A stretch of DNA of 21,313 bases from Thermosulfurimonas dismutans (GCF_001652585.1 NZ_LWLG01000023.1:1-21313), one strand, 5' to 3'. Counted from the stretch's first letter, positions 3,775-21,193 are shown. The notes: generated by a model not told the origin, from the sequence alone. Numbers and translations are program-made.

Positions 3775-5085
3775 GTGTTAGGTGGAAGGATAAAAGAGTT
3801 TCTCAAAGACAGGGAGAAAAAACAACTTTGTGAAAACTTTATATCTCTTTCGTTGCTTCAGGGAGCGAATTATATACTTCCTTTAGTTATTTTACCGTAT
3901 TTAGTTAGGGTGTTGGGTCCAGAAAAGTTTGGTCTCATAGCTTTTGCTCGATCCTTTGTGCAGTATTTCAATATCTTAACGGATTATGGCTTTAATCTTT
4001 CTGCTACCCGAGAGATCTCGATATATCGGGAAAGCAAGGAGCGAATCTCTGAAATATTCAGTGCTGTACTGACTATTAAATTGGTTCTATTAATCTTTTC
4101 TCTTGTAATATTGACTATTATTGTTTTTGGTTTTCAAAAATTTCGAAAAGATTGGGAAATATATTACTTTAGTTTTGGAATAGTAGTGGGGCAAGTTTTA
4201 TTTCCTGTATGGTTTTTTCAGGGGATGGAAAGGATGAAGTATATTACAATTTTGAATGTTATTGCCAAATTGATTTTTGCTGTTTCTATTTTTGTTTTTG
4301 TTCGTGAAGTTTCGGATTATATTTATGTGCCGCTGATAAATTCTTTAGGTTTTATAGTTGCAGGTATATTGGCATTATGGATTGCTTTTAAGGATTTTGA
4401 TATTTACTTTAAAGTTCCTAATTTAATGGTAATAAAACGTCAAATAGAAGAGGGATGGCATATTTTTATGTCTACAGTTTCTTATAACTTATACACTAAT
4501 TCTCCTAAGTTTTTTATTGGAATATTGATAAACAATAAATCTGTTGCTTTTTTCTCACTGGCTGAAAAAGTAGTTAATATTTTAAGGCAGTTGATTAATA
4601 TTATCTTTCAAGTTTTTTATCCATATTTAGCAAGGATGTTTAAAGAAAGTTTTAAAACTTACACAAAAGAATGGTTTAGATTATTTAGAATTTCAACAGG
4701 AATAAGCATGTTATTATGTGCTTTTGTTGTTTTCATACCAAAAAGCATGTTTTTGTTTGTATTTTCGGAAAGTTTCTTGCCTTCGTTATCTATGCTAAAG
4801 CTATTGGTTTTATCTTTACCTTTGCAATGTTTTATGAATCTGTTCGGAATGCAATCTATGTTGATATTGGGATTTGTCAGAGCTTATGGATTTTCCTATG
4901 TGTTCTTTTCCATTTTATTTTTGGTTATTTTACCTATAATATTATGGTTTTCAAAAAGTGTTTTTTTATTAATAGGATTAATTTTAGTTACGGAATTTAT
5001 GATAATAATTTATAGAATTTTTTATTTATATAAAAAAGGAATTTTATATGCGTTATTTAGATACTCAGCATATAGTAGAAAATAA
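3775..5085 (+). CDS. wzx: Wzx-like polysaccharide/O-unit flippase (MOP superfamily)
   Basis: GTG start. The N-terminal pattern LLQGANYILPLVILPYLVRVLGPEKFGLIAFARSFVQYFNILTDYGFNLSATREIS is typical of RfbX/Wzx proteins. The protein is highly hydrophobic and multi-spanning across its 436 aa. Confidence 0.8.
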   Translation: MLGGRIKEFLKDREKKQLCENFISLSLLQGANYILPLVILPYLVRVLGPEKFGLIAFARSFVQYFNILTDYGFNLSATREISIYRESKERISEIFSAVLTIKLVLLIFSLVILTIIVFGFQKFRKDWEIYYFSFGIVVGQVLFPVWFFQGMERMKYITILNVIAKLIFAVSIFVFVREVSDYIYVPLINSLGFIVAGILALWIAFKDFDIYFKVPNLMVIKRQIEEGWHIFMSTVSYNLYTNSPKFFIGILINNKSVAFFSLAEKVVNILRQLINIIFQVFYPYLARMFKESFKTYTKEWFRLFRISTGISMLLCAFVVFIPKSMFLFVFSESFLPSLSMLKLLVLSLPLQCFMNLFGMQSMLILGFVRAYGFSYVFFSILFLVILPIILWFSKSVFLLIGLILVTEFMIIIYRIFYLYKKGILYALFRYSAYSRK

Positions 5086-6289
5086 TTGGGAAAAGTTAGC
5101 AATGAATAGACGTTATGAGTATTTACACTTTCGAATAAACCAATTACTTAATTCTATTGTTAATCTGAATGTTTTAGATAGGGGATCAAAAGTATTAATC
5201 AATTCCATAAGGGATAAAAGCAAACTTAAAGTTTCATTGTCAAGTGTCAATTACTTAAAGAATCTATTAAAGATACTTAATCGGATAACTGGTAAAAATT
5301 ATAGCCTTAGTTATAACATTTTGTATCTTAAAAATTACATAGAGTTTTTTCTAAAAATCCACAACATAATACTAAACTATCTTCATGAATATGTAAAAAC
5401 AAGACCATATTTAGTACAGGCTAAACAATATGACAACACATTTTATGCTTACCCTCAGCTTATAGAAGTGCGCAACTTCTATAAGAAAGTTTCGAGAATA
5501 GAAGGATTGAAAGAAGTATTTATTCAGGGAAGTCTGTCTACCCTTGACTATAACAAATTTAGTGATTTTGATACTTTTATAATCATAAGTAAAGAAGCAG
5601 AAGAAGATGTAGATCTTTTTATAGATACTATTTTTAAACTATTTAGAGCATCTCGCTATTTTTACAAGTTTGATCCTTATCAGCACCATAGATATTTTGC
5701 GTGTCTTGAGTCTGATTTATATGCGTACAACCAAGCATGTCTCCCAACGAAAGTTTTAGATTATGCTACATCCATAAAAAATTCAGAGGAATTATTCTTT
5801 CAAGTATATGACTCAAGGTTGTCACACGTTATTTTCCTCACGAATGTCTTAAACTATTTTGTAATTCATCACGAAGAAAGTTTTAAAAGAATAGCTAATC
5901 TATGGAATCTTAAATATTTTGTAGCTACAGTGTTATTTATTCCTGTTCTCTTTTTAGAGGTAATTAATATTTATGTATACAAAAGGGATTCTTTTTCGAT
6001 AATAAAACAATTTTTATCAATAGATTTACAAAATTATATTGATAGATGTAGCTACTTGCGTCAAATATGGAATTATAAACTAACAACCAAAGAAAATCTC
6101 TTTAGAAAGCTATTTTTAGATATATACTTAAATCCTATATTATATGAGTATGTAATGCAGAAATATAGTCAGAAGATTAATAGAAAAGAATTCAACTATA
6201 TATTTTCGGGAAGTATTCCTTATACTCAGTTTTTCTACGATGAAGTTAGAAAAATTTATAAGAAAGATTTTAACATAGATGTTGAATAA
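5048..6289 (+). CDS. Uncharacterised protein with a Pol-beta-type nucleotidyltransferase-fold motif
   Basis: G161-S-x10-D173-F-D175 (GSLSTLDYNKFSDFDTFIII, nt 5528-5572) matches the hG[GS]-x(9-13)-D-h-[DE]-h minimal NTase signature. The remainder is predicted to be helical and lysine/tyrosine-rich. An alternative start at ATG 5102 would avoid the 38-nt overlap with wzx. Confidence 0.5.
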   Translation: MRYLDTQHIVENNWEKLAMNRRYEYLHFRINQLLNSIVNLNVLDRGSKVLINSIRDKSKLKVSLSSVNYLKNLLKILNRITGKNYSLSYNILYLKNYIEFFLKIHNIILNYLHEYVKTRPYLVQAKQYDNTFYAYPQLIEVRNFYKKVSRIEGLKEVFIQGSLSTLDYNKFSDFDTFIIISKEAEEDVDLFIDTIFKLFRASRYFYKFDPYQHHRYFACLESDLYAYNQACLPTKVLDYATSIKNSEELFFQVYDSRLSHVIFLTNVLNYFVIHHEESFKRIANLWNLKYFVATVLFIPVLFLEVINIYVYKRDSFSIIKQFLSIDLQNYIDRCSYLRQIWNYKLTTKENLFRKLFLDIYLNPILYEYVMQKYSQKINRKEFNYIFSGSIPYTQFFYDEVRKIYKKDFNIDVE

Positions 6290-7346
6290 ACAACAGATTA
6301 TCAATGATCTAAAGAAATTAGATATGGATGACTATAGAAAGATAATAATAGAGTTTGTTGACGAGTTTAAATATCCTAAGATAACATTATATAGTTTTGG
6401 TAATTTAAAGCATCCCTCCATTTCTGATTTAGATCTTGTAATAGTGTATGATGATCGTCTGGATGATAGTTTTGTTGCAAAAATTGTAGAGAAAGCAAAA
6501 AAATTTGTTGTGTCCAATGAGGTTAAGAAATACGTTTTTACTCATGACATTTTAATCTATCCAAAGAGTATTTTTAGGAAGATAAAATTTTTGCATACTT
6601 TTCAAAACATGAAGCTACTCTGTGGTAAGGAGGTTGACATACTTGTTCCATCGGAAGAAGAGCAGAGCATAGTAGATAAAGTCCATTTTATAAACTTTAC
6701 ATATAATGCTCTTTTTTGGTTAAAAGGCATTAGATTACAAAAAAAAGTTTACTTAAGACAAACTTTACTCACTTTAAATTCTGTTAGACATAGTTTTGTT
6801 TTTTTAAAAAAAATTTATCAAGATTCAAATTTAATCAAATGGATAGATATTTTAGGAGAAGTTAGGCAAGATTATAGTCTTATTTACAAAATATCCTTTC
6901 ATGAGTTGGAAGAAATTTTTTTTGAATATTTACAAAAATTTTTAGCAAGATTTTTGAGAAAATGGATAGATTTTTCCAACTTAGATAAATTAATTAACAA
7001 AAAAATATTAGTATTACACGGAAGAAGAATGATTGCAGTTCCTAGTTTAAGCATTATACATGGAGCGTCTTATTGTAAATGTTGTCCTGAAAATAAACAA
7101 TCAATATATTGGAAGATACATCGATCCTTATATCCTATAAATAACTTTACTATTAAAGATAGAAATTATAAAGGTGTTTTGCGTCATCAGATGGAAGCTG
7201 CTATGGAATTCGAAGTGTTATATAGGAAATTCCGAATAAAACCTCTTATTCCACTTATGTGCAATTACTGTACGCCGGTGATGACTAAAAAACAAAAAAT
7301 AAGATCATTATTGAATAGCTTTGTAGTAAAAATACAGTTATTATAA
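6279..7346 (+). CDS. Uncharacterised protein with an NTase-fold-like motif and a C-terminal Cys cluster
   Basis: The motif is G41-N-x7-D50-L-D52 (FGNLKHPSISDLDLVIVYDD, nt 6399-6434), with a downstream acidic THD at residues 88-90. The C-terminal cysteines are C266-x-C268-C269 and C328-x2-C331. The gene overlaps the previous one by 11 nt, suggesting translational coupling. Confidence 0.45.
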   Translation: MLNKQQIINDLKKLDMDDYRKIIIEFVDEFKYPKITLYSFGNLKHPSISDLDLVIVYDDRLDDSFVAKIVEKAKKFVVSNEVKKYVFTHDILIYPKSIFRKIKFLHTFQNMKLLCGKEVDILVPSEEEQSIVDKVHFINFTYNALFWLKGIRLQKKVYLRQTLLTLNSVRHSFVFLKKIYQDSNLIKWIDILGEVRQDYSLIYKISFHELEEIFFEYLQKFLARFLRKWIDFSNLDKLINKKILVLHGRRMIAVPSLSIIHGASYCKCCPENKQSIYWKIHRSLYPINNFTIKDRNYKGVLRHQMEAAMEFEVLYRKFRIKPLIPLMCNYCTPVMTKKQKIRSLLNSFVVKIQLL

Positions 7347-7358
7347 GAAGGTGTTTTA

Positions 7359-8507
7359 GTGTTTAACTACATAATAGTTGGTTCAGGATTTGCAGGATCG
7401 GTAATAGCCGAAAGAATAGCAAATGTTTTAAACAAAAAAGTTTTGGTAATAGAAAAAAGAAGTCATATAGGTGGAAACTGTTATGACTATAGAAATAAAG
7501 ACGGGATAATTATTCATAAATACGGCCCTCATTTATTCCACACAAATTACAAAGAAGTTTTTGATTATCTTTCTAACTTTACAGATTGGCGAATATATTA
7601 CCATAAAGTTTTAGCTTTTATTGATGGAAAAAAGGTTCCAATTCCCTTTAATTTCAATTCTATGGATATACTATTCCCTGAAATTTTATCAAAAAAATTA
7701 CAAGAAAAACTTCTAAAAAAATATCCTTATGGTGCAAAGGTTCCGATTTTAAAGTTAAAAAAGGAAAATGATAAAGATTTAAAATTTCTGGCAGATTTTG
7801 TATATGAAAAAATTTTTAAAAATTACACAATAAAACAGTGGGGAAAGAGACCTGAAGAAATAGATTCAGAAGTTACTGCAAGAGTTCCTGTTTGTATTGG
7901 GAGGGATGATAGATACTTTGATGATAAATATCAAGCGTTACCAGAAGAAGGCTATACTAAAATCTTTGAAAGAATGCTTTCTCATCCAAACATAAAGCTC
8001 ATGTTGAATACGGATTTTAAGGAAATAATGAAAGTAGATTTAAAAGGTAAGAAAATCTACTTCTTGGGGCAAGAGTTTAAAGGAAAGGTAATATTTACGG
8101 GCATGATAGATGAATTATTTGCTTACAAATTTGGAATGTTACCTTATCGCTCTTTAGATCTTCATCTTGAAGTAATCGAAAAAGAATATTTTCAAGAAGT
8201 GGCTGTAGTGAATTATCCCAACGATTATGATTTCACAAGGATAACGGAATTTAAACACATACATCCTATCAAGACCAATAGGACCGTCATTCTTAAAGAG
8301 TACCCGAAAGATTATGATCCAGAGCGAGACATTCCCTATTATCCATTTTTCGATAAAGCAGCCCGGGAGGTCTATGCTAAATATCAGGAACTTGCCGAGA
8401 GATTTGACCATCTTATTCTTGTAGGACGATTAGCAGAATACAGGTATTATGATATGGATGATGTAATCAAAAGGAGTTTAGAAGTATTTGAAGAAAGGAT
8501 CAGATAA
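7359..8507 (+). CDS. glf: UDP-galactopyranose mutase
   Basis: GTG start. The FAD-binding N-terminus reads YIIVGSGFAGSVIAERIA...VLVIEKRSHIGGNCYD...IHKYGPHLFHTN. The C-terminus has ITEFKH...YYPF...GRLAEYRYYDMDDVI. The protein is collinear with E. coli Glf along its whole length. Confidence 0.93.
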   Translation: MFNYIIVGSGFAGSVIAERIANVLNKKVLVIEKRSHIGGNCYDYRNKDGIIIHKYGPHLFHTNYKEVFDYLSNFTDWRIYYHKVLAFIDGKKVPIPFNFNSMDILFPEILSKKLQEKLLKKYPYGAKVPILKLKKENDKDLKFLADFVYEKIFKNYTIKQWGKRPEEIDSEVTARVPVCIGRDDRYFDDKYQALPEEGYTKIFERMLSHPNIKLMLNTDFKEIMKVDLKGKKIYFLGQEFKGKVIFTGMIDELFAYKFGMLPYRSLDLHLEVIEKEYFQEVAVVNYPNDYDFTRITEFKHIHPIKTNRTVILKEYPKDYDPERDIPYYPFFDKAAREVYAKYQELAERFDHLILVGRLAEYRYYDMDDVIKRSLEVFEERIR

Positions 8508-8510
8508 AAG

Positions 8511-9473
8511 ATGAGCAGCGTAAAAGATACTGTTTGTGCGGTAGTGGTTACTTACAACCGTAAGGGTTTGCTTATTGAATGTCTAGAGGCTTTGTGCAAA
8601 CAGACCAGGCCGGTACAGGGAATTTATTTAATAGACAATGCTTCTACGGATGGTACCCCTGACTTGCTTCTGGAGAAGGGGTATATAAAAGAATTACCTC
8701 CTGAGAATTTGTTAGAGCCCTGGGAGAAAGAATTCGAGATAAAAAACTTAACTGATGAGCAGCATATAAAATTCTACTATGTTCGAATGCATGAAAATAC
8801 CGGTGGTGCTGGTGGTTTTCATGAGGGTGTAAAAAGGGCTTATGAAAAGGGATATGATTGGTTGTGGTTAATGGATGATGATGTTGAGCCCTTGCCAAAG
8901 GCGTTGGAGACTCAATTGTCATATGCAGAGATTTCTAAATGTATTCATCCGTCTAGAAAATATGTAGATGGCAATAGAGTTTTGTGGGAGGTGTATTTGG
9001 ATCCTAAAAGTTCTAAAGAGATTTTTTTGAAAGACAGATCTTTTAAAGAAAAAAAATTAAATTATTGTTTAGTAAATGTTGGATGTTTCGAAGGGATGTT
9101 GATCCATCGAGATATTGTTGCTAGGATAGGTTATCCTGATAAAAGCTTTTTTATTTCAAAAGATGATACTATTTATGGTTTTTTGGCAAGTAAATTTACG
9201 AAGAATATTTATATTAGAGATATATGTTTTATTAAAAAGGTTAAAAAATTAAATAAACTTTCCGGGAAATCTTTATATTATTTTGTCAGGAATAGGTTTA
9301 TTTTATGTTTATATTTAAAAAGAGAAGGATATTTCACTTGCAAGTCTTATTTTTGGGTTTTTTATAAGATTTTCAGAATGTTGGTGTTTAATTTTGTAAA
9401 ACTAGATTTAAAGAGTTGTTATTTTATCTTGAAAGGTTTGTCTAACGGTTTGAAATTTGTTTCAAAATCTTGA
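8511..9473 (+). CDS. GT2-family glycosyltransferase (candidate galactofuranosyltransferase by context)
   Basis: VVVTYNRKGLLIECLEALCKQT...IYLIDNASTDGT and WLWLMDDDVEP (DxD) are GT-A/GT2 hallmarks. The gene starts 3 nt after the glf stop. The acceptor and donor assignment is inferred from adjacency only. Confidence 0.8.
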   Translation: MSSVKDTVCAVVVTYNRKGLLIECLEALCKQTRPVQGIYLIDNASTDGTPDLLLEKGYIKELPPENLLEPWEKEFEIKNLTDEQHIKFYYVRMHENTGGAGGFHEGVKRAYEKGYDWLWLMDDDVEPLPKALETQLSYAEISKCIHPSRKYVDGNRVLWEVYLDPKSSKEIFLKDRSFKEKKLNYCLVNVGCFEGMLIHRDIVARIGYPDKSFFISKDDTIYGFLASKFTKNIYIRDICFIKKVKKLNKLSGKSLYYFVRNRFILCLYLKREGYFTCKSYFWVFYKIFRMLVFNFVKLDLKSCYFILKGLSNGLKFVSKS

Positions 9474-9500
9474 GTTTTTATTTTATAAAGTGCTTTAAAA

Positions 9501-10718
9501 ATGCTTTCCAAAATAGCTGTTGTAATTTCTAGTTTGATATTAATTTTATTATCTTTTTATCCGTTAGCTTTCATAAGATTTTATATTGTCATTAGGACAC
9601 TTTTTCAGCCTTTTGCGAATAAGCATTTGACATTGTTTGGGAATTTTCCTATTAATGCCCCATTGCCTTTAATTTTGTTGTTTTATTCGTATTTGGCGTG
9701 TATTTTTAGGCAAGATTTTTCTTTATTTGTTCCTAATTCTGTATATCTTTATTTGTTCCTTTTTTGGAGTCTGCTTTCTTTGATAAATTCTTTTAATTTA
9801 TACGCTTCATTTGCTTTCATTTTTAAAATCTTAGCTGTAATTTCCGTTTACTTATTAATTTATAATTCAATAGAATCCGCTGAAGATTTCAAGAAGATTC
9901 ATAAGACAGTAGTGTTTTTAGCCTTAATAACTATATTCTATGGTTTTTGTCAAATTTTTTTAAAAGAAGGACAACCATTCTATGGACCTATAGTAAGAAT
10001 TAAAAGTTTTTTTTCTAGTGCCAATGAATTTGGTATTTTTCTTTCTTTAGCAATAATTTCAAATTTAATATTAGTAGCCATAGAAGGATTTAAAAAACAA
10101 TATAAGATTTTCTTAAGCTTAATGATATTAGCCTATATTTTGGCTTTAAATCGTGGATCGTGGATAGCTATGACTACTTCTATATTTTTGTCATATTTCT
10201 TTTTTAGGGATAAAATAAGATTAAGAAGTATTGTTTTACCTATTGCTATAATTTTTTTAATGTTTTCTCCAATTATAATATTGCGATTTCTTCAATTGGA
10301 AAATCCTGCAGAAAATACCTTTGTAGGCCGTATAAATTTCTGGAAAAATATGCTATATTTAATACCGCAACATCCTCTTTTAGGCTTTGGAATTGGAACT
10401 ACTGAGTTAGTATTTCAGTCTCTAACTGGACGAAAAATATATCCTCACAATGATTTTTTAAGATTATTTTTTGAAATGGGATTCGGGAGTATTTTTTATA
10501 TCCTCTTTTTAATTAAATCTTTATTGTTTTTTATTAAAAATAAAGCTAATAACTGGAAAACAAACTTTTTGTTTATTGTATCCCTTTTTTATTGGCTAAT
10601 TATTAGCATTCCCCAAAATATTGTTAATAATGTAGTATTATTTCCTTTATTTATGACTTTAATTGCTTCAGGATTAAAATATAACTTTTTAATAAATTTT
10701 GAGGGAAAACATATATAA
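9501..10718 (+). CDS. wzy: Wzy_C/O-antigen-ligase-family polytopic membrane protein (probable polymerase)
   Basis: It has about 10-12 hydrophobic segments. LNRGSWIAMTTSIF and the periplasmic-loop motif YPHNDFLRLFFEMGFGS are characteristic of the Wzy_C / WaaL family. Polymerase and ligase cannot be told apart from sequence, and the wzy call rests on pairing with wzx. Confidence 0.7.
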   Translation: MLSKIAVVISSLILILLSFYPLAFIRFYIVIRTLFQPFANKHLTLFGNFPINAPLPLILLFYSYLACIFRQDFSLFVPNSVYLYLFLFWSLLSLINSFNLYASFAFIFKILAVISVYLLIYNSIESAEDFKKIHKTVVFLALITIFYGFCQIFLKEGQPFYGPIVRIKSFFSSANEFGIFLSLAIISNLILVAIEGFKKQYKIFLSLMILAYILALNRGSWIAMTTSIFLSYFFFRDKIRLRSIVLPIAIIFLMFSPIIILRFLQLENPAENTFVGRINFWKNMLYLIPQHPLLGFGIGTTELVFQSLTGRKIYPHNDFLRLFFEMGFGSIFYILFLIKSLLFFIKNKANNWKTNFLFIVSLFYWLIISIPQNIVNNVVLFPLFMTLIASGLKYNFLINFEGKHI

Positions 10719-10724
10719 ATTACT

Positions 10725-11828
10725 ATGATTGAATGTAAACTTTATTATTTTTATAGTCCTCATTTAATACAAATCTATGAAGGATTTTATCGTTTAGCAA
10801 AAAAGAGACTCATTAAGTTGAAAATTGAAAAAATAAAAGGCGATCCACAAAAACCTATTTTAGAAGTAATTATTGATAATAAATACAAAGTTATTTATGA
10901 TACATTAGATGGCTTTAATTGGATTGAAGCTTCTGTAGAAGAAAACCTTGAGTTTTTTAAAAAAAGATTTGTAAATGTGGATTATTACTTTAAAAGAAGT
11001 TTTTCAAAAATTTTATATAAATATGCCCCGTCTAATTGTAAGATTTATCCTTTAGGTTTGAATTTTTCTTTTGATCCATCTTATTTTGTGTTGGAATGGA
11101 AATATTTAGTTAAGAATATAGTCCAAAAAGTATGGCCAATTTTTTATAAAATTCAATCGATTTCTATTATTAAGAACAAATTTCCTAAATTAGGTTATAT
11201 TTCTGAAAAATTGCTATTAGAAAATTTTGAGTTTCCACCTATTAGTACACAAAATAAAGTGTTATTTATAACTCGATTATTTGATCCTATGAAGTTCCCT
11301 TTATGTTATAGAGAAGAAGTAGAAAAATTAAATGAAACCAGAATTTTAATAATTAGATCTTGCAAAAAAGAGCTTAAAAATATATTTACTGGTGGATTGT
11401 ATGAAGATGAATATTCTTTAAAAGTTGCTAAAAATTTAACAATATCTAGAAATATTACAAGAAGATCTAATTTTGTTAAGTTAATTAAATTACATAATAT
11501 TTGTATATCTACAACAGGATTACATAAATCTATTGGATGGAAATTTGTAGAATATGTTGCTGCATCTAGAGCTATAATTACAGAACCTCTTTTTTATCAA
11601 TTACCCGGAAATTTTAAGGTGGACAAGAATTATTTAGAATTTAGAAATATAGATGAATTATTAGAGAATATTTATACTCTTTTAAGAGATCAAGGAAAGA
11701 TCAAAGATATAATGCGAGCTAATTTTTATTATTATAATATGTATGTTAAACCCGAAAATTTAGTTTTAAATACACTATTAAAAATAAAGAATTTTTTAGG
11801 AAAAAATGATAATATTTATAGTGGGTAA
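10725..11828 (+). CDS. Putative GT-B-like glycosyltransferase (CgeB / Glyco_trans_1_2-like C-terminal half)
   Basis: The C-terminal stretch ICISTTGLHKSIGWKFVEYVAASRAIITEPL...NYLEFRNIDELLENIYTLLRD resembles the C-terminal nucleotide-sugar-binding half of CgeB-like GT-B enzymes. The N-terminal half is unrecognised. Confidence 0.4.
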   Translation: MIECKLYYFYSPHLIQIYEGFYRLAKKRLIKLKIEKIKGDPQKPILEVIIDNKYKVIYDTLDGFNWIEASVEENLEFFKKRFVNVDYYFKRSFSKILYKYAPSNCKIYPLGLNFSFDPSYFVLEWKYLVKNIVQKVWPIFYKIQSISIIKNKFPKLGYISEKLLLENFEFPPISTQNKVLFITRLFDPMKFPLCYREEVEKLNETRILIIRSCKKELKNIFTGGLYEDEYSLKVAKNLTISRNITRRSNFVKLIKLHNICISTTGLHKSIGWKFVEYVAASRAIITEPLFYQLPGNFKVDKNYLEFRNIDELLENIYTLLRDQGKIKDIMRANFYYYNMYVKPENLVLNTLLKIKNFLGKNDNIYSG

Positions 11829-12816
11829 TAGTAGAAGTGGTACTACTTTAATGGCCGAGATTTTAAATAAGCATCCTTTGATTTATTCTTTTAATGAATT
11901 ACATTTTTTTGAAATGCTATACGATCCTAATGATAACTCAATTAACGATAAAAAAATTTTGAACATGCTGACAAAATTATATTGGTCTCATAAAGGTAGT
12001 GATTGGGTTAAATGTAATATAGATGATTGTTATAATGATGCTTTGTTGTTATATAATAAACTTTGTTTTGAAAATAAAATTGAACATCCAATAGAAATAT
12101 ATAAAAATTTTTTGTATATTGAAACACAAAAAATGGGAAAACTTTTCCCTTGTGAGCAAACGCCACGTAACTTATTTTATTTAAAAGAAATTTTACAGTA
12201 CTTTTCTGATTCGAAGATTATATATATGATTCGAGATCCTAGAGCAGTATTAGCTTCACAAAAAAACAAATGGAAAATGAAATTTTTAGGACATAGTAAT
12301 ATGCCTCTGAGAGAAGCTATACGTTCTTGGATAAATTATCATCCTTATACAATAAGTAAGCTTTGGAATTCAGCTTCCAAGGCTATTAAGCCTTTTTTAT
12401 CTCATCCAAACGTTTTAGTAGTAAAATTTGAAGAATTGGTAAATGATCCTTACAGAACAATTAAAAAGACGTGTGATTTTCTGGAAGTAGAATTTTATAA
12501 TGAAATGTTGGATGTTCAGTTGGCCGGATCTTCTGTCTATAAAAAGGGTAAAAAAGGTTTCAGAAAAGAGGTAATAAGTGCTTGGAAAAATAAAGGATTA
12601 AATAAAACTGAAATATATATATGCCAAGAAGTTAATAAAAAAGAGATGGAATTCTGGGGATATGATTTTGAAAAAGTTAGTCCAAACTATTTATTTTTTG
12701 TTTATTATTTGATAACTTTTCCTATTAAAACATCTATGGCATTAATCTTTAATTTAAGAAGGTCAAAAAATATTTTTAATGCAATGAAAAGGCGCTTAGT
12801 AAGTTTAGAGAATTAA
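11806..12816 (+). CDS. PAPS-dependent sulfotransferase
   Basis: IIFIVGNSRSGTTLMAEILNKHP corresponds to the 5'-phosphosulfate-binding loop. IIYMIRDPRAVLAS corresponds to the 3'-phosphate-binding motif of the sulfotransferase fold. The gene overlaps the previous one by 23 nt. Confidence 0.8.
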   Translation: MIIFIVGNSRSGTTLMAEILNKHPLIYSFNELHFFEMLYDPNDNSINDKKILNMLTKLYWSHKGSDWVKCNIDDCYNDALLLYNKLCFENKIEHPIEIYKNFLYIETQKMGKLFPCEQTPRNLFYLKEILQYFSDSKIIYMIRDPRAVLASQKNKWKMKFLGHSNMPLREAIRSWINYHPYTISKLWNSASKAIKPFLSHPNVLVVKFEELVNDPYRTIKKTCDFLEVEFYNEMLDVQLAGSSVYKKGKKGFRKEVISAWKNKGLNKTEIYICQEVNKKEMEFWGYDFEKVSPNYLFFVYYLITFPIKTSMALIFNLRRSKNIFNAMKRRLVSLEN

Positions 12817-12819
12817 ATA

Positions 12820-14025
12820 ATGGAAATTCTTATAGCAAACAAATTTTTTTATCTTAAAGGCGGTTCAGAACGAGTTCTTTTTCAAGAAAGAGAGTTCTTG
12901 TTGAATAATAAGATTAAAGTAATAGATTTTTCTATGAAAGATTCCAGAAATTTTTCTTCTGAATATTCATCTTATTTTGTCTCCTATATTGACTATTACA
13001 CCACAAATAGATTTCTTATTAAATTAAAAAACGCTTTCAAATTTATTCATTCTCCAGAGGCGGTTCGAAAAATTAAATTTTTAATTCAAAAGGAAAAGCC
13101 GGATATTGCCCATCTGCATAACATTTACCACCAGTTGACACCTTCCATCATTCATCCTCTCAAGGAACAAGGGGTGAAAGTGATTCTAACCCTGCACGAC
13201 GGGAAGCTCATCTGCCCTACCTACCTTATGCTTGACCGGAAAATAAAGCTCTGCCTTGAGTGCCAGGGAAAGTATTTTTACAAACCGTTTCTCAAAAACT
13301 GTGCTGGCTCACGCTTCAAGGGGCTTCTTTTGATGGTGGAAGCTTACTGGCATAAGTTCTTTAAATCCTATGACAAGGTGGACCTTTTTATTGCTCCCAG
13401 TCGGTTTTTGGCAGAAGTGGTCTCGCAACGGATTCCGCGGGAGAAAATCGTAGTTCTTCGCAACGGGATAGACCTTAACGAATACCGGCCTACCTATGAG
13501 GATGGTGGATACGCCCTTTACTTCGGAAGGCTTTCCCGGGAGAAAGGCGTGGAGACCCTACTTGAGGCTCACCAGGAAGTGGCCAAAGAGATCCCCCTCA
13601 AAATAGTTGGGACCGGGCCGATGGAAGCCGAGCTTAAGGCGAAATATCCGGAGGCGGAGTTTTTGGGTTATCGGACAGGGGAGGAGCTCAAGTCGCTTGT
13701 GGCCCGGGCTTCCTTTGTGGTGGTGCCCTCGGAATGTTACGAAAACTGTCCTATGACTGTGCTTGAGGCCATGGCATTGGGGAAACCCATTATTGCAAGC
13801 CGCATCGGGGGGCTTCCGGAGCTCGTGGAGGAGGGTAAAACGGGGCTTCTTTTCGAGATGGGGAATGTGGAGGAATTAAAAGAAAAGATGCTTTTTCTGT
13901 GGAAGAACAAGGATCTTCGGCGGGAGATGGGGCGAGCTGCGCGGCAAAAGGCGGAGCGGGAATTTTCCCTCGAGAAACACTGCGAGGAACTCCTGCGAAT
14001 ATACCGAAGGCTTCTTGAGAGTTAG
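12820..14025 (+). CDS. GT4-family (GT-B, retaining) glycosyltransferase
   Basis: GRLSREKGVETLLEA...IVGTGPMEAEL...VVVPSECYENCPMTVLEAMALGKPIIASRIGGLPELVEEGKTGLLF includes the E-x7-E motif. The nucleotide composition switches from AT-rich to GC-rich at about nt 13090, inside the ORF. Confidence 0.9.
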   Translation: MEILIANKFFYLKGGSERVLFQEREFLLNNKIKVIDFSMKDSRNFSSEYSSYFVSYIDYYTTNRFLIKLKNAFKFIHSPEAVRKIKFLIQKEKPDIAHLHNIYHQLTPSIIHPLKEQGVKVILTLHDGKLICPTYLMLDRKIKLCLECQGKYFYKPFLKNCAGSRFKGLLLMVEAYWHKFFKSYDKVDLFIAPSRFLAEVVSQRIPREKIVVLRNGIDLNEYRPTYEDGGYALYFGRLSREKGVETLLEAHQEVAKEIPLKIVGTGPMEAELKAKYPEAEFLGYRTGEELKSLVARASFVVVPSECYENCPMTVLEAMALGKPIIASRIGGLPELVEEGKTGLLFEMGNVEELKEKMLFLWKNKDLRREMGRAARQKAEREFSLEKHCEELLRIYRRLLES

Positions 14026-14032
14026 GTGATCG

Positions 14033-16114
14033 ATGAGAATTTTTTGGCTCCTTGTTTTGCTGTGCTTTTTTTCGGTTTCTCCCTTGCTAGCGCAACCTGC
14101 GGCTGAAATTACCATCAACTTTGAGGAAGTGGAGAGGGTTAATCCCTACATTTTCGGCCAGGGAATATTGGGTTTCGATCCCTGTAAAACGCGAAGGAAA
14201 AACCGAAAGTTTTGTGTAAACGACGGAAGATTTACCAATTTCGGAGCCGGAGTCTGGGACCCACTTTTGAGAAGGCCAAACGCGGTTCTGGTAGACCTTG
14301 CCAAAAGAATAAAAGTTTCTGTTTTGCGTTTTCCCGGAGGGTGCGGTACCCATCATTACGACTGGAAAAGGGCCATCGGGCCGGTTGAAAAGCGGCCCAT
14401 GTACAGATTCGGCATAGACGAGTTCATGGAGCTCTGTCAGGCTGTAGGAGCTAAACCTATTATTGTTTTGAGTTATTTCACCGGGACCTGCCAGAACCTA
14501 GCGGATCTGGTGGAGTATCTCAATGCTCCCCTCGGGACCAACCCCAACGGCGGGGTGGCCTGGGCGGAGGTGCGGGCCGCCAATGGGCACCCGGAGCCTT
14601 ATGGGGTGAGATGGTTTGAATTTGGGAACGAAGTGTGGCATGGGGATCATAGGAAAATTTCCGCTGTAGATCCAAGAGAATATGGAGAACGGTATCTTGA
14701 ATGTCAAAAGTTAATTAAAAACATTGATCCTAAGATTAAACTCGGAGCAGTAATGAGAAGAAGTTTATATGGATTAGGCTGGTGGAGTCGAACTGTTCTT
14801 TCTGTAATTAAAGAAAATGTCGATTTCGTAATTTTTCATATCTATCCTCCTGGTTATCGATCTGATAGAAATGAAATATCTACTAATGAACTTTTTAAAA
14901 TAGCTTTGGCTGCTCCTGAGCAAATTAGCGATTCTCTTTTTAGGATCTCTAAACAATTAAAAGAAATTACTAGGAGAGAGATTCCGATTGCTATTACCGA
15001 ATATAATGGTGGTTTTGTGCAAAATAAGCCGGTACCATACAGGCATTCTCTAGGAAATGCTCTTCTAATTGCGGATCTTTTAAGAGTATTTTTGACGGCA
15101 AATACGCCTATTTTGTGCGCTAATTATCACCATTTTTCTAATTCTTATTGGGGATTAGTTTATAATCCTCGATATTTGAAATTAAGGGATAGATATTATA
15201 TGAGACCTAATTATTATGTATTTGAATTGTATGCCAATCATTTTGGAGATATTTTATTAAAAACTAAAGTGAAATCAAAAAGTTATTTTCAATCTGGCTA
15301 TAAAAACATTTTACCTTCTATAAAAACTAAAAAAGTATCCTCTCAAAATTTAAATTTTTCAGAGATCTATAAAGAAAAAGTTTTGAGAATTGATTTTAAA
15401 TGGCTTCCTCCGTGTGTTAAAGTAAAAAAATATTCTGATTATTCGGTAATTCATTTTGATTGCGAAAAACGTAATAAGTTAGGAATATATTTTATTGATA
15501 AAATTCAAAATGTTAAACCTAATTGGTTATATTTTTGGGAAACCGAAATAAAAACAAACTTGGCAAAAGCATGGTTTTTTATAGCAATTAAAGATCAAAG
15601 GTATAGACGTATTAAACATTCAAAGATTTTATGGGGAAATACAGAGTGGATAAAAACCGGCTTTGATTTTAAGACTCCCGATAATATTAAAATTTTAAAT
15701 CTGCTGTTTTTTATCAAAGGAAAAGAAAATAAAGGAATTAAGGGAACAGTCTATATTAAAAATATGAAAATTGGGGAACTTGGCTCGGCCCCGCAATACG
15801 GGCCGACGCCATATATTTCGGCCTTGGCGAGCACCAACGAGAAGAGGAACCGAATCTACCTCATGGTGATCAACAAAAACCTGGAAGAACCTATGAGGAC
15901 GCGGATAAAAATAAATGGCTTTCCCTCTGGTCCCGTGGTTCGGGCCTGGGTGCTGAACGGGCCTTCGGTGACCGCCACCAATGAAAATCGGCAAGAAAGG
16001 GTTAAAATCCATTACCAAGAGGTGGAGGTGGATCCGGGGAAAGAATACTTTTGGTTTACCTTCGAGCCGCATTCGGTAACGGCCTTAGAGTTAACACGTA
16101 GGGAGGGAACTTGA
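14033..16114 (+). CDS. Secreted GH51-like glycoside hydrolase (alpha-L-arabinofuranosidase family) with an internal extra module
   Basis: The signal peptide is MRIFWLLVLLCFFSVSPLLA|QP. Blocks collinear with GH51 AbfA are LRFPGGCGTHHYDWKRAIGPVEKRP, FGIDEFMELCQAVGAKPIIV, DLVEYLN and WFEFGNEVW (acid/base Glu in GNE). Further blocks are VDFVIFHIY, IAITEYN (candidate nucleophile) and a C-terminal beta-sandwich ending FEPHSVTALEL. About 175 extra residues (roughly aa 410-585) lie between the barrel and the C-terminal domain. Confidence 0.75.
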   Translation: MRIFWLLVLLCFFSVSPLLAQPAAEITINFEEVERVNPYIFGQGILGFDPCKTRRKNRKFCVNDGRFTNFGAGVWDPLLRRPNAVLVDLAKRIKVSVLRFPGGCGTHHYDWKRAIGPVEKRPMYRFGIDEFMELCQAVGAKPIIVLSYFTGTCQNLADLVEYLNAPLGTNPNGGVAWAEVRAANGHPEPYGVRWFEFGNEVWHGDHRKISAVDPREYGERYLECQKLIKNIDPKIKLGAVMRRSLYGLGWWSRTVLSVIKENVDFVIFHIYPPGYRSDRNEISTNELFKIALAAPEQISDSLFRISKQLKEITRREIPIAITEYNGGFVQNKPVPYRHSLGNALLIADLLRVFLTANTPILCANYHHFSNSYWGLVYNPRYLKLRDRYYMRPNYYVFELYANHFGDILLKTKVKSKSYFQSGYKNILPSIKTKKVSSQNLNFSEIYKEKVLRIDFKWLPPCVKVKKYSDYSVIHFDCEKRNKLGIYFIDKIQNVKPNWLYFWETEIKTNLAKAWFFIAIKDQRYRRIKHSKILWGNTEWIKTGFDFKTPDNIKILNLLFFIKGKENKGIKGTVYIKNMKIGELGSAPQYGPTPYISALASTNEKRNRIYLMVINKNLEEPMRTRIKINGFPSGPVVRAWVLNGPSVTATNENRQERVKIHYQEVEVDPGKEYFWFTFEPHSVTALELTRREGT

Positions 16115-17520
16115 AGGAAACCTGCCTCGAGTTTCTTCGGAATCAAAAGATAACCTCCTCACACCTCAGGGAAACCATTTGCTTCCAGGGAAAGAAGCTA
16201 CCGAAGAGATTTTTTTATGAGGAACTGCAGAGGTATTTAAGCGAATTTTTCAAATCCGGCCGGGGGATAAGGATGGTGGCCCTGGCCGGACTGCGGGGAA
16301 CCGGAAAGACCACCCTCCTCTGGCAACTGGCGGACTATCTCCTTCGAAACTTCAAGGAAAAAGCCGAAGGCTTCTTTATAAGCCTTGATGTGGCCTACAG
16401 TTACGGTTTTTCGGAAAAAGATCTTATCGAAGGATTGCAAAAAATATACGAAGATTTGAAGTCTCAAAGGAAAACACTGGTGCTCTTTCTCGACGAGGTG
16501 CAATATCTCCACAACTGGCCTCTGATGCTAAAAGTGCTCTATGACAAGTTCAAAGACTGTTTTATTTTCGTAAGCGGAAGCTCTGCCCTGTATCTTCACT
16601 CTACGGTAGATCTGGCCACCCGGTGGATCCTGAGATCCCTTCTTCCTTTGAGTTTTCGCGAGTTTCTAATGATAAAGGCCTTCCTAGAATCTGGCTTTGA
16701 AGTTCCTTCCTTTTCCCGAGCGGAGGAGCTCAGGAAGACACTTTTCTTCTCCGAATCGCTTGAGGAGTTAAAGGAAGGCCTGAAACTAGTAGAAAAAGAG
16801 GCGCAGGAGTTTTATAAAGAAGATCTTCCCTGGCAGGGGCTCATTCGGGAATACATATTATTTCTCAATCTCCCCCGTTTTATACCGGTGGAGGAGGAGA
16901 AGGTTCTGGCTGATCAGACCTTCGACATGCTTCAAAGAGTAGTCTATCAGGATCTCCGGAATTTTTATCCGGAAAGCGAGGTGGTGAGTGTCTTCAAGCT
17001 GCTTTCTCAGCTAGCGGCTAGCGACGAAATAAACCCGGAGAGGCTTTCGCAGGACTTAGGGGTTTCAAGAAAGCGGATAGAACGAATAATAAAAAGCTTG
17101 ATAGAAGCGGAGGTTTTACTGGCCTCTCCTCCCTACGGAGGAACCAAAACCAGAGTTGCCCGGCACAGAAAAGTCTTTTTCCTTTCTCCAACCCTTAGAT
17201 ACGGAATCCTTAGGCAGATTTTTGCGGACGTTCGGCCTTTCTTTTCCAAGTTTCTGGAGGATACCGTGGCCCTTTATCTAAGACGACTCCTTAAGAACGG
17301 AATGTATTATCTACCTACCGAGACACAAAAGACCCCGGATTTTGTGGTGGAAACCGCTCTTGCACCCGTGGTTTTGGAAGTGGGAACCGCTAAAAGGGAT
17401 GTTTCCCAACTCAAGCTTAAAAATATGCGTTACGGTATTCTCCTGAATTTTGATCTGGAGGTGCCGGAATTCAAGGATAAAGTAGTTATCTTTCCTTTCA
17501 AGTGGTTTTTGCTTATGTAG
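16111..17520 (+). CDS. AAA_14 / DUF4143-family ATPase with a C-terminal winged-helix-like segment
   Basis: The TTG start overlaps the GH stop codon by 4 nt. Walker A is LAGLRGTGKTTLL and Walker B is LVLFLDEVQYLHNWPLMLKVLYD, the typical AAA_14 pattern. An HTH-like segment LSQDLGVSRKRIERIIKSLIEAEVL lies in the C-terminal half. Confidence 0.8.
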   Translation: MKETCLEFLRNQKITSSHLRETICFQGKKLPKRFFYEELQRYLSEFFKSGRGIRMVALAGLRGTGKTTLLWQLADYLLRNFKEKAEGFFISLDVAYSYGFSEKDLIEGLQKIYEDLKSQRKTLVLFLDEVQYLHNWPLMLKVLYDKFKDCFIFVSGSSALYLHSTVDLATRWILRSLLPLSFREFLMIKAFLESGFEVPSFSRAEELRKTLFFSESLEELKEGLKLVEKEAQEFYKEDLPWQGLIREYILFLNLPRFIPVEEEKVLADQTFDMLQRVVYQDLRNFYPESEVVSVFKLLSQLAASDEINPERLSQDLGVSRKRIERIIKSLIEAEVLLASPPYGGTKTRVARHRKVFFLSPTLRYGILRQIFADVRPFFSKFLEDTVALYLRRLLKNGMYYLPTETQKTPDFVVETALAPVVLEVGTAKRDVSQLKLKNMRYGILLNFDLEVPEFKDKVVIFPFKWFLLM

Positions 17521-17544: not shown

Positions 17545-17560
17545 ACATAGGGGGGTGAGG

Positions 17561-18538
17561 ATGGAGGCGGCTATTATTTTGACCTACCGCTGTATCTGCA
17601 AATGCTACATGTGTAACATCTGGAAATATCCCACAAAACCCTCGGAGGAAATAAAACCCGAGGTGCTGGAGAAGCTTCCGGACAATCTGGCCTTCGTGAA
17701 CCTCACCGGGGGCGAGCCCTTTTTGCGGGAAGACATAGAAGACATTGTGGACATTGTGATGCGCAAGTCTAAAAGAGTAGTCATAAGCACCAACGGGTGG
17801 TTTACGGAAAAGATCGTAAATATTGCCAAGAAGTATCCCCGAATAGGTATAAGAGTGAGTCTTGAGGGGCTTCCGGCGGCCAACGATGAGCTACGGGGTA
17901 TAAAAGACGGCTTTGATCACGGCCTGCGGACGCTCCTTGAGCTTCAGCGCATGGGCCTTAAGGACATCGGCTTCGGCATCACGGTCTCCGACCGGAACGC
18001 CAAAGACATGATAGAACTTTACCAGCTTGCCAAAAGTCTGGGGTTTGAATTTGCCACTGCGGTTACGCACAATTCCTATTATTTTCATAAACACGATAAT
18101 GTTTTCAAAGATCAAAGAATGATCGAAGACTGCTTCCGGGAATTGATAAATGAACTGCTCTGTACAAAGAGGGTGAAGAACTGGTTTCGAGCCTACTTCA
18201 ATTACGGGCTTATCCGAAGAGTGAGAGGTCAACCGCGACTTCTTCCTTGTGAGGCCGGGACGGAGAATTTCTTCGTAACCCCTTTTGGGGAAGTGGTTCC
18301 CTGCAACGGTTCTCCAGAACCGTGGGTCATGGGTAATCTGAAACGCCAATCCTGGGATGAGATCTGGAACGGTGAGCAGGCCCAAAAGGTTAGAGAAAAG
18401 GTCAAAAACTGTGATAGGCAGTGCTGGATGATAGGGACCGCCGCCCCGGTGATGAAGAAATATATATGGAAGCCTCTAAAATGGGTGGTAAGGAACAAAC
18501 TGCGGGTGATGATGGGAAAGGAGCCCTGTTTGGACTGA
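17561..18538 (+). CDS. Radical SAM enzyme with a SPASM/twitch-like C-terminal Cys domain
   Basis: The tracked ORF starts at GTG 17555. The ATG at 17561 is preferred because GGGGGTGAGG lies immediately upstream. The rSAM cluster motif is C11-x3-C15-x2-C18 (YRCICKCYMCNIW), followed by GGEPFL. The C-terminal pattern is LPCEAGTENFFVTPFGEVVPCNG...CDRQCW (SPASM-like C-x-A-G ... G-x-V-x-P-C). Confidence 0.85.
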   Translation: MEAAIILTYRCICKCYMCNIWKYPTKPSEEIKPEVLEKLPDNLAFVNLTGGEPFLREDIEDIVDIVMRKSKRVVISTNGWFTEKIVNIAKKYPRIGIRVSLEGLPAANDELRGIKDGFDHGLRTLLELQRMGLKDIGFGITVSDRNAKDMIELYQLAKSLGFEFATAVTHNSYYFHKHDNVFKDQRMIEDCFRELINELLCTKRVKNWFRAYFNYGLIRRVRGQPRLLPCEAGTENFFVTPFGEVVPCNGSPEPWVMGNLKRQSWDEIWNGEQAQKVREKVKNCDRQCWMIGTAAPVMKKYIWKPLKWVVRNKLRVMMGKEPCLD

Positions 18539-20038: not shown

Positions 20039-20449
20039 GTGATTACAGCCGTTGATACCAATATTCTAATAGATATTTTGGAACCCGATCCCCTTTATGG
20101 GCCTGCCTCAAAAGAAGCTCTAAAAAAGTGTCTAAGAGAAGGAAAGATTGTAGCTTGTGAAGTTGTATGGGCCGAGGTGGCTGTGGTTTATGTCGAGGCG
20201 CAGGAAACCCTTATAAAAATGTTAGAGAAGATAGGGCTCGAATTTTCACCTATTACTCGGGAAGCCGCCTTAGTGGCGGCTAAATGCTGGGCTGAATATT
20301 TAAAAAGGGGGCCCAAGAAGAGAAGGATTGCGGCTGATTTTCTCATAGGAGCTCATGCCTTGGTTCAGTGTGATCGTTTGTTAACCAGAGATAAGGGATT
20401 TTATCGGGAGTATTTTAAAGGACTTAAGGTTATATATCCTGGTGATTGA
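20039..20449 (+). CDS. vapC: PIN-domain ribonuclease toxin (VapC-type)
   Basis: GTG start. The N-terminal AVDTNILIDIL carries the first conserved Asp. Further acidic residues lie in ACEVVWAEV, AADFLIGAHA and LLTRD. A length of 136 aa is typical for VapC. Confidence 0.85.
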   Translation: MITAVDTNILIDILEPDPLYGPASKEALKKCLREGKIVACEVVWAEVAVVYVEAQETLIKMLEKIGLEFSPITREAALVAAKCWAEYLKRGPKKRRIAADFLIGAHALVQCDRLLTRDKGFYREYFKGLKVIYPGD

Positions 20450-20455
20450 AAGATG

Positions 20456-21193
20456 CCGTTGAGTTTTCGCGAGTTTCTAATGATAAAGGCCTTCCTGGAA
20501 TCCGACCTTGAAGTACCCCCCTTTTCCCGGGCGTAGGAGCTCCTGAAGACACTTTTCTTCTCCGAATCGCTTGAGGAGTTAAAGGAAGGTCTGAGATCTA
20601 TAAAAAAGAGGTGCAGAAGTTTTATAAAAAAGATCTTCCCTGGCAGGGGTTTATTCAGGAATACATCTTATTTCATAATCTCCCCCGTTTCATACCCGTG
20701 GAGGAGGAGAAGGTTCTGGCTGATCAGACCTTCGACATGCTTCAAAGAGTAGTCTATCAGGATCTCCGGAATTTCTATCCGGAAAACGAGGTGGTGAGTA
20801 TCTTCAAGCTGCTTTCTCAGCTTGCGGCCAGCGACGAAATAAACCCGGAACCAAAACCAGAGTTGCCCGACACAGAAAAGTCTTTTTCCTTTCTCCAACC
20901 CTTAGATACGGAATCCTTAGGTAGATTTTTGCGGACGTTCGGCCTTTCTTTTCCAAGTTTCTGGAGGATACCGTGGCCTTTTATCTAAGGCGACTCCTTC
21001 CGAACGGAATGTACTATCTACCTACCGAGACACAAAAGACCCCGGATTTTGTGGTGGAAACCGCTCTTGCACCTGTGGTTTTGGAAGTGGGAACCGCTAA
21101 AAGGGATGTTTCCCAACTCAAGCTTAAAAATATGCGTTACGGTATTTTCCTGAATTTTGATCTGGAGGTGCCGGAATTCAAGGATAAAGTAGT
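20456..21193 (+). pseudogene. Decayed 3' copy of the AAA_14/DUF4143 ATPase gene (paralogous to 16645..17486)
   Basis: Aligns base-by-base with 16645-17486, with 6 mismatches in a hand-counted 120-nt stretch (20671-20790). It lacks the 5' ~535 nt that include the Walker motifs. GAG at 16723 has become TAG at 20534-20536, there is a 1-nt deletion near 20591-20605, and a 103-nt deletion corresponds to 17040-17142. The tracked ORF 20611..20988 is a frame-shifted remnant of this copy. Confidence 0.85.

Follow-up and report, generated by a model that had tools for sequence, protein, structure and literature searches.

A conserved pair of nucleotidyltransferase-fold genes in the surface-polysaccharide locus of Thermosulfurimonas dismutans and in glycan loci of other lineages

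Introduction

The 21,313-bp contig of Thermosulfurimonas dismutans (lineage Thermodesulfobacteriota) analyzed here, which at its full length we call the window, holds a Wzx/Wzy-type surface-polysaccharide cluster, and two adjacent genes within it, referred to below as A and B, raise the question of what a pair of nucleotidyltransferase (NTase)-fold proteins does in glycan assembly. Surface polysaccharide loci have been searched intensively with vaccines, phage receptors and biotechnology in view, and still this pair is known only as “nucleotidyltransferase domain-containing” or “hypothetical”. The genes in question are the following:

5048–6289, + strand: gene A, encoding a 413-amino acid (aa) aminoglycoside O-nucleotidyltransferase (ANT)/GlnE-like Pol-beta nucleotidyltransferase (open reading frame, ORF, with an ATG start)
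6279–7346, + strand: gene B, encoding a 355-aa NTase-fold protein of a family other than that of A (ORF with an ATG start)
6279–6289, + strand: overlap of the end of A with the start of B, 11 nt (from the ORF coordinates)

We found that A and B are a conserved two-gene module within glycan loci and a conserved functional unit for surface-glycan assembly. Because the same pair recurs in polysaccharide clusters, it probably adds a nucleotide-derived group to surface sugars.

Results

Pairing of A and B across genomes

The 11-nt overlap implies that translation of A and B is coupled. A itself begins 38 nt before the end of the Wzx gene, with an AAGGA Shine-Dalgarno-like motif 7 nt 5′ of its ATG, and both start codons are supported by the fact that the N-termini of A and B are kept in homologues. 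Close relatives retain either the order Wzx-A-B-Glf (L001–L004; loci are labeled L and proteins P) or A-B (L008–L010), and in most loci elsewhere the A/B junction is an overlap or of the 4-nt ATGA type.

With every GTDB species represented by a single genome, a scan yielded 13 loci, 12 of them with sequence downstream of A, and in 12 of these 12 gene B was found downstream of A on the same strand. These loci came from Bacteroidota, a Woeseiaceae gammaproteobacterium, a Gastranaerophilales metagenome-assembled genome (MAG), a Woesearchaeota archaeon and an uncultured bacterium. A scan of metagenomes with a narrower A alignment gave 80 loci, 49 of which had at least 2.2 kb of sequence downstream of A; B lay no more than 6 kb from A in 42 of these 49, and in 34 of the 42 the two genes overlapped or were at most 175 nt apart. 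Exactly one small gene separated A from B in 6 metagenome loci, and in one more B lay 8 kb away. We also considered whether a divergent B or a B-GT4 (glycosyltransferase) fusion lies downstream of A genes that lack B, and dropped this idea, as L034, L053, L060, L065 and L069 were unmatched by the B profile.

One protein, P0233 (628 aa), is a natural A-B fusion in which the gene order is kept (A core, E 1e-40; B part, E 2e-21). Its locus (L023) is of the ABC-transporter type and encodes Wza, a Wzc-like protein, Wzm, Wzt with a Wzt_C module, the A-B fusion, a GT4 enzyme and several GT2 enzymes. In flavobacterial loci, an A-like protein of 278–285 aa is followed by a sulfotransferase and then by a 319-aa protein that is B-like both by BLASTP and by the B profile. 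Related loci are also found in Psychroserpens sp. S379A, whose assembly is the only related genome record without a MAG label.

The A family is large. Searched against 1.84 billion cluster representatives (clusters at 50% identity), its profile matched at least 1,463 proteins at E ≤ 1e-3, which is a lower bound, and 1,265 at E ≤ 1e-10. Most of these proteins are 270–350 aa long and cover A residues from about 150 to 405, that is, the NTase and helical core, while a minority has the N-terminal extension. The family spans Thermodesulfobacteriota, Bacteroidota, Gammaproteobacteria, Gastranaerophilales and Woesearchaeota. Neither A nor P0039 had a tblastn match in 72,556 plasmids.

The glycan context and the toxin-antitoxin alternative

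Wherever the flanking sequence sufficed for a judgment, the locus was a glycan locus. Among the 134 ORFs flanking A/B in the 13 loci, the commonest families were GT1/GT4 glycosyltransferases (37), Wzx (10), AsnB-like amidotransferases (9) and Wzy (8), together with methyltransferases, aminotransferases, acetyltransferases and sulfotransferases. Wzx stood directly 5′ of A in several unrelated lineages (L001–L004, L011, L016–L018, L024, L026, L079, L090, L092 and L101). In addition, tailoring genes were found wedged into the pair: a sulfotransferase gene lies between A and B in the Psychroserpens-type loci L005–L007 and L028, and an S-adenosylmethionine (SAM) methyltransferase gene (PF13578 or PF08241) occupies the same place in L012, L014, L021, L022, L041, L084, L087, L089 and L095, with further loci having a methyltransferase directly before A or after B. 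The A core is also found fused to a GT1 domain (P0085 and P0123) and to a methyltransferase (P0101). The recurrence of methyltransferases and sulfotransferases, along with the GT4 fusions, indicates that A/B share their cytoplasmic intermediate with those enzymes. A link to sulfation as a general rule, or a novel ATP sulfurylase, was rejected, given that sulfotransferases are few and methyltransferases fill the slot in many loci.

The preliminary description of this DNA had seen the pair as a modification module of a glycan locus or, alternatively, as an unrelated MNT-like toxin-antitoxin or defense pair riding in the cassette. The module has gained by the comparison, with pairing and context both kept well beyond what that proposal needed, and the hitch-hiker is effectively excluded by context. 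MNT antitoxins do occur among the weak structural matches of A and B, and overlapping genes in a two-gene operon with an NTase domain (minimal in MNT) are shared with the MNT-HEPN type VII systems; however, the NTase motif is present in both proteins, neither has a HEPN match or a HEPN partner, and both are three to four times the size of MNT (about 100–150 aa). PADLOC gave no match, no toxin-antitoxin or defense family is among the 25 commonest of the 134 neighbor ORFs, the fusions of A are to glycosyltransferase and methyltransferase, and the GC content of A and B equals that of the glycan genes around them. The description was also right about the glycan locus, as seen from the Pfam families, and about the RmlA/GlmU-like ManC, which is a PF00483 protein. 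The GC profile confirms a low-GC cassette (24–29% across 4000–13000, compared with 43–54% in the flanks).

Two side observations concern other NTase-type genes in these loci. Classical small MNT (NTP_transf_2) and HEPN genes lie just 5′ of Wzx-A-B in the metagenome contig L004 (106–1243); these genes are distinct from the A/B pair and should not be confused with it. Another uncharacterized NTase family (PF14907, NTP_transf_5) is present in some of the polysaccharide loci, namely L006/L007 (at about 11.7–12.9 kb) and L054 (3322–4626).

Two NTase-fold families

AlphaFold2 models of A and B, both built on shallow alignments, reached a predicted local distance difference test score (pLDDT) of 92.7 and a predicted template modeling score (pTM) of 0.92 for A, and a pLDDT of 90.4 and a pTM of 0.88 for B. 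Both have an NTase core of the order alpha-beta-alpha-beta-alpha-beta, in which a helix is followed by strand beta1 with the glycine motif at its end, beta2 bearing the DxD, helices and beta3, and behind the core comes a large helical domain. Only in A is the core preceded by about 135 further aa of helical structure. The sites referred to below are these:

5528–5572, + strand: A catalytic motif G161-S162-x10-D173-F174-D175 (with S172), a predicted nucleotide- and Mg2+-binding signature, constant in 144 representatives
5672–5689, + strand: A motif D209-P-Y-Q212-H213-H214, just before strand beta3, at least 90% kept in the 144 representatives
within 6279–7346, + strand: B NTase domain, about residues 16–115, then the helical domain (AlphaFold2 model)
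6399–6434, + strand: B catalytic motif G41-N42-x3-P46-S-I48-S49-D50-L51-D52 (20 family members)
6543–6548, + strand: B H89-D90, just before strand beta3; H89 is constant family-wide and D90 is kept in the close subfamily only
7074–7271, + strand: B cysteines C266, C268, C269, C328 and C331 (C266-x-C268-C269 and C328-x2-C331), lineage-specific

In an alignment of 144 diverse A-family representatives at about 20% identity, G161, S162, D173, D175, P233, P299 and K312 are constant, and S172, D209, Q212, H213, H214, K289, S315, F316, R338 and W341 are at least 90% kept; position 160 is His in at least 90% of the family and Gln in the A of the window. This constancy shows that the GS/DxD motif of A is not due to chance. 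In the B family, 20 members, with identities down to 14–21% and one of them archaeal, have Y19, G41, P46, I48, S49, D50, D52, H89, R160 and R196 in common, and chance is likewise no explanation for the motif of B. On the basis of the hG[GS] and [DE]h[DE]h motifs and the core fold, A and B are members of the Pol-beta-type nucleotidyltransferase superfamily, and from their conserved residues and models they are very probably active NTase-fold enzymes.

In agreement with these results, the preliminary description had given the 413- and 355-aa ORFs with their 11-nt overlap, as well as the motifs GS-x10-DFD and GN-x7-DLD, all at positions that proved exact, and the Pol-beta NTase fold, catalytic residues and following helical regions that it had read from the DNA are now seen in the models, the Foldseek matches and the alignments of 144 and 20 proteins. 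A metal-binding role that it had suggested for the cysteine cluster of B fared less well: the cluster is there in this protein, but these cysteines vary already among close homologues and are missing from distant ones, which speaks against a functional feature. That A and B are distinct families, that ANT enzymes are their closest relatives, and that methyltransferases and sulfotransferases are recurrently wedged in or next to the pair was absent from it.

Both proteins look soluble. At 5921–5977, A residues 292–310 form a strongly hydrophobic 19-residue stretch (Kyte-Doolittle mean 2.25) in a kept helix that contains the invariant P299. This helix may be buried in the protein core, or it may contact the membrane in connection with a lipid-linked substrate.

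In profile-profile comparison, the mutual hhalign probability of A and B was 0.4%, with the SDxD stretch alone aligning, and the B profile matched no A-family representative. We therefore dropped the idea that A and B are sequence-detectable paralogues, and by these comparisons they are two distinct families. The 12 close homologues of A and the 14 of B are without a functional name, and the matches to the B family were all labeled “hypothetical” and had no Pfam domain. Against PF01909, A scored 21.2 bits, just passing the cutoff of 21, and B scored 14.6 bits, which is below it. Counting family-level Pfam matches at E ≤ 0.05, PF01909 was matched by 111/144 A members and by 8/20 B-family members, and PF18765 by 103/144 A members. 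Among NCBIfam models there was no meaningful match and no ANT match for the A or B of the window, and no dedicated model for either family, as is also the case in Pfam. The best NCBIfam matches of the A family were weak ones to ANT_9, obtained for 39/144 A members (best E 5.9e-6).

Likeness to aminoglycoside nucleotidyltransferases

Foldseek searches of the PDB ranked aminoglycoside O-nucleotidyltransferases first for both proteins, and nearly all top matches had the NTase fold, including AAD(9)/ANT(9) (6xz0), AadA, ANT(6), ANT(4′), LinB, DrrA, GlnE and MNT antitoxins. The top matches were ANT(9), AadA and DrrA for A, and ANT(9), ANT(6), MNT and AadA for B. Single-sequence searches of A and B against the PDB gave nothing useful, and the B profile reached ANT(9) (6sxj) at E 0.08.

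ANT(9) and ANT(3″)(9)/AadA (6xz0 and 5g4a) have in common with A/B a two-domain build, with a PF01909-type NTase domain and a helical domain, and the G-S...S-D-x-D signature. In AadA, S36, S46, D47, D49 and E87 bind ATP and two Mg2+, with E87 as the catalytic base, and the phosphates are bound by R192 and K205, which lie in the helical domain (PMC6065190). The arrangement in A matches S36/S46-D47-x-D49, and the basic helical-domain residues K289, K312 and R338 of A and R160 and R196 of B parallel R192/K205 and may likewise contact the nucleotide. ANT enzymes modify a hydroxyl of a sugar or a cyclitol. A/B depart from the ANT pattern chiefly in having a histidine where the third carboxylate would be expected. 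There is no invariant acidic residue on beta3 of A, D209 lying four residues before H213/H214, and B has the invariant H89 instead. H213 follows D175 by 38 residues, which is the spacing of E87 after D49 in AadA, and H89/D90 of B are placed likewise, so that, judging by spacing and predicted secondary structure, H213 and H89 would stand where AadA has its base. The Glu base itself is lacking at this spacing in A/B, and the AadA substrate residues W112, D182 and H/N185 have no reliable alignment to A/B. Furthermore, in contrast to ANT enzymes, A has an extra N-terminal helical domain of 135 aa, A and B are a pair, and their genes are located in polysaccharide loci rather than resistance cassettes; identity to ANT enzymes is about 8–11%, with no score at any family cutoff.

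Other enzymes of the superfamily provide an alternative, in which A and B AMPylate or UMPylate an assembly or export protein and thereby regulate polysaccharide production. GlnE, GlnD and DrrA (SidM) have the same G-S-x10-S-D-[LF]-D motif as A/B, and we take the “SD[LF]D” motif of the pair to be GlnE/GlnD-like. The best PDB sequence match of the A profile was the AMPylation domain of DrrA (E 0.003), and weak matches to SidM_N (31/144 A members, best E 1.6e-4), Adenyl_cycl_N (22/144) and GlnD (one member) were obtained as well. However, the fusions join the A core to glycan enzymes (GT4 and methyltransferase) rather than to regulators and, like the genomic context, indicate a glycan target; a helical domain with Lys/Arg facing the NTase domain is the architecture of small-molecule ANT enzymes; and the GlnE and GlnD_UR_UTase Pfam domains are lacking, with PF03710 and PF08335 unmatched. 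We regard protein modification as quite improbable.

Donor synthesis and LicD-like transfer

A second alternative is that A/B make an unusual NDP-X, from X-phosphate and a nucleoside triphosphate (NTP), for the adjacent GT4 enzymes. GT4 genes flank A/B in most loci and GT1-A fusions exist, and in L061-type loci a type I phosphodiesterase/nucleotide pyrophosphatase (PF01663; 8254–9816 in L061) is encoded directly 5′ of A-B. However, no sugar-1-phosphate nucleotidylyltransferase is known to have this fold, the ManC of the window is of the usual PF00483 type, and the 13 loci have no conserved kinase to make a phosphorylated precursor. Taken together, we find a role in donor synthesis very improbable. 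The PF01663 enzyme could instead trim or reverse a nucleotide-phosphodiester modification. The same A-B-GT4 layout as in L061 was also seen in L048–L051 and L057. We found no donor-synthesis gene conserved with the pair, either in the window, which has ManC only, or across the 13 loci; since no special activated-donor gene is conserved with A/B, a ubiquitous NTP would fit as the donor.

This bears equally on a LicD/fukutin-like reaction, in which an NDP-activated alcohol or sugar would serve as donor and the two proteins would add two successive phospho-linked substituents, like LicD1/LicD2 or FKTN/FKRP. LicD-type enzymes are often paired, as two sequential paralogues, and the glycan context is the same. 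LicD, fukutin and FKRP (PF04991) resemble A/B in belonging to the NTase superfamily and in decorating glycans, theirs being phosphodiester-linked groups, and LicD enzymes use CDP conjugates in glycan pathways (PMC11666461). On the other hand, PF04991 had no match to A or B at E ≤ 10, in line with the preliminary description, which had set the pair apart from LicD/fukutin-type enzymes, and none was among the matches listed for the 144 A and 20 B members. The motif type differs too, that of A/B being the classical G-S-x10-SDxD of the NTP-using ANT/GlnE/DrrA enzymes, and no cytidylyltransferase, CDP-alcohol synthesis gene or other donor-making gene is conserved nearby; only L005 has a TagD-like gene, and that locus has its own PF04464 transferase. 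The classical G-S...SDxD motif, the similarities to ANT and DrrA, and the lack of a conserved donor-synthesis gene lead us to favor an ANT-like over a LicD-like reaction, and we consider the latter unlikely.

The surrounding locus in T. dismutans

Along the window, the locus encodes APS kinase, ManC (PF00483 plus PMI), Wzx, A, B, Glf, a GT2 enzyme, Wzy, a 367-aa ORF, a sulfotransferase, a GT1 enzyme and a GH51-like protein. The features with bearing on the pair and on sulfation are located as follows:

3775–5085, + strand: Wzx flippase gene (PF01943 at 8.9e-67)
7359–8507, + strand: Glf, UDP-galactopyranose mutase, directly 3′ of B (PF03275 at 1.1e-75)
11806–12816, + strand: sulfotransferase in the same cassette (PF13469 and PF00685)
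1131–1739, + strand: adenosine 5′-phosphosulfate (APS) kinase (PF01583 at 3.5e-64)

We see the APS kinase as supplying 3′-phosphoadenosine 5′-phosphosulfate for the sulfotransferase, and treat it as locus context. The 367-aa ORF between Wzy and the sulfotransferase (10725–11828, + strand) has a faint Glyco_trans_1_2 match (E 0.08) as its sole match. Downstream of Glf, within the glycan locus, a 693-aa protein that looks secreted and contains alpha-L-arabinofuranosidase (GH51-like) domains (14033–16114, + strand) may process a furanoside-containing polymer. A 207-aa protein (367–990, + strand) starts with a signal-like segment and ends with a PEP-CTERM motif (PF07589, E 0.005), so that the polysaccharide locus next to it may be part of an exosortase/PEP-CTERM system. 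At 17555–18538 (+ strand) the window codes for a radical-SAM/SPASM protein, and a similar one lies directly 3′ of B in the Woesearchaeota locus (L013, 9813–10886), which may be coincidence.

Towards the ends of the window, an AAA_14/DUF4143 ATPase gene (16111–17520) has a partial second copy at the right end (20456–21193 versus 16645–17486), 92–97% identical and with an internal deletion, of which a 125-aa ORF (20611–20988) is a fragment. A PIN-domain (VapC-like) protein is encoded near the right end (20039–20449, + strand), and a 120-aa ORF at the left end (12–374, + strand) looks like what we take to be a C-terminal transposase fragment.

Discussion

The reading that we favor, tentatively and at a little short of an even chance, is that A and B together make up one conserved, two-subunit enzyme of the cytoplasm, NTP-using and ANT-like, that nucleotidylylates a lipid-linked glycan. 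The two proteins would form a physical heterodimer, with an NTP as donor and a glycan hydroxyl as acceptor. The NTP would be bound by the G-S/N loop, by the SDxD carboxylates with Mg2+, and by basic side chains in the helical domain; the undecaprenyl-diphosphate-linked repeat unit would then attack the alpha-phosphate through one of its hydroxyls, pyrophosphate would leave, and the product would be a sugar-O-phospho-nucleoside, that is, a phosphodiester-linked nucleotide-derived substituent. This reaction would precede flipping of the repeat unit by the neighboring Wzx, and the methyltransferase or sulfotransferase encoded between or beside A and B would act on the same intermediate. The nucleotide may stay on the polymer, may be trimmed, or may serve as a transient activating group.

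Several points weigh against this reading. The matches to ANT enzymes, in structure as well as in sequence, were weak throughout (Foldseek E 0.02–1, template modeling score 0.3–0.5), and with E-values in this range the likeness to ANT is one of fold rather than of family membership. The alignments do not clearly show a canonical third carboxylate, and the chemistry may differ from that of ANT. B is missing in 6/49 metagenome loci, and from these roughly 12% of A genes without a nearby B, it follows that A can work alone; moreover, the loci are partly near-duplicates, many from related Bacteroidota clusters, so that the counts of loci overstate their independence. The A-B fusion was found once only. 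Finally, we know of no bacterial polysaccharide that bears a nucleotide.

As A/B are often located together with an exporter, the exporter may recognize their product. A doubtful extension of the nucleotidylylation reading is that A/B put a nucleoside monophosphate (NMP), or an NMP-derived phosphodiester, on the finished repeat unit or chain end as a “finished” mark for the exporter. Such a mark, sometimes methylated or sulfated too, would be read by Wzx in the window and by the carbohydrate-binding module of Wzt in the locus with the A-B fusion. In that locus P0233 is encoded directly after wzm-wzt, presumably the position occupied by wbdD, and the fusion at this WbdD-type terminator position, in a single ABC-type locus, also points to exporter recognition, as a lead rather than a result. 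Terminators and recognition by carbohydrate-binding modules are established in ABC-transporter-dependent O-antigen pathways, and WbdD-type terminators (kinase plus methyltransferase) resemble A/B in using ATP (in the case of A/B, probably), in being linked to a methyltransferase and in being encoded beside the exporter (PMC3482155; PMC11231755). They differ in that the WbdD kinase is protein-kinase-like, in that the locus of the window is Wzx/Wzy-dependent, where capping is not known, and in that only one A/B locus is of the ABC type. We rejected chain termination as a general rule, as the “Wzt” matches proved spurious, coming from a generic ABC exporter and a RecN-like protein in L054 and L061, which makes L023 the only true ABC-type locus.

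The fold and general reaction type of A and B are already known. What appears to be new is a widespread, conserved pair of distinct ANT-like families in polysaccharide loci, with a histidine at the base position. This pair appears undescribed, as no prior description of it was found in the literature on a nucleotidyltransferase with Wzx/Wzy, adenylylated polysaccharide, the LicD/NTase fold or T. dismutans polysaccharide. O-nucleotidylylation of a glycan on a bacterial or archaeal surface is a modification class without a description so far and, if the nucleotidylylation reading is true, it would be new chemistry in glycan tailoring. It would also connect ANT resistance enzymes, which are of clinical importance, in their origin with housekeeping enzymes of sugar modification, and it could explain why particular Wzx/Wzt exporters travel with particular tailoring genes.

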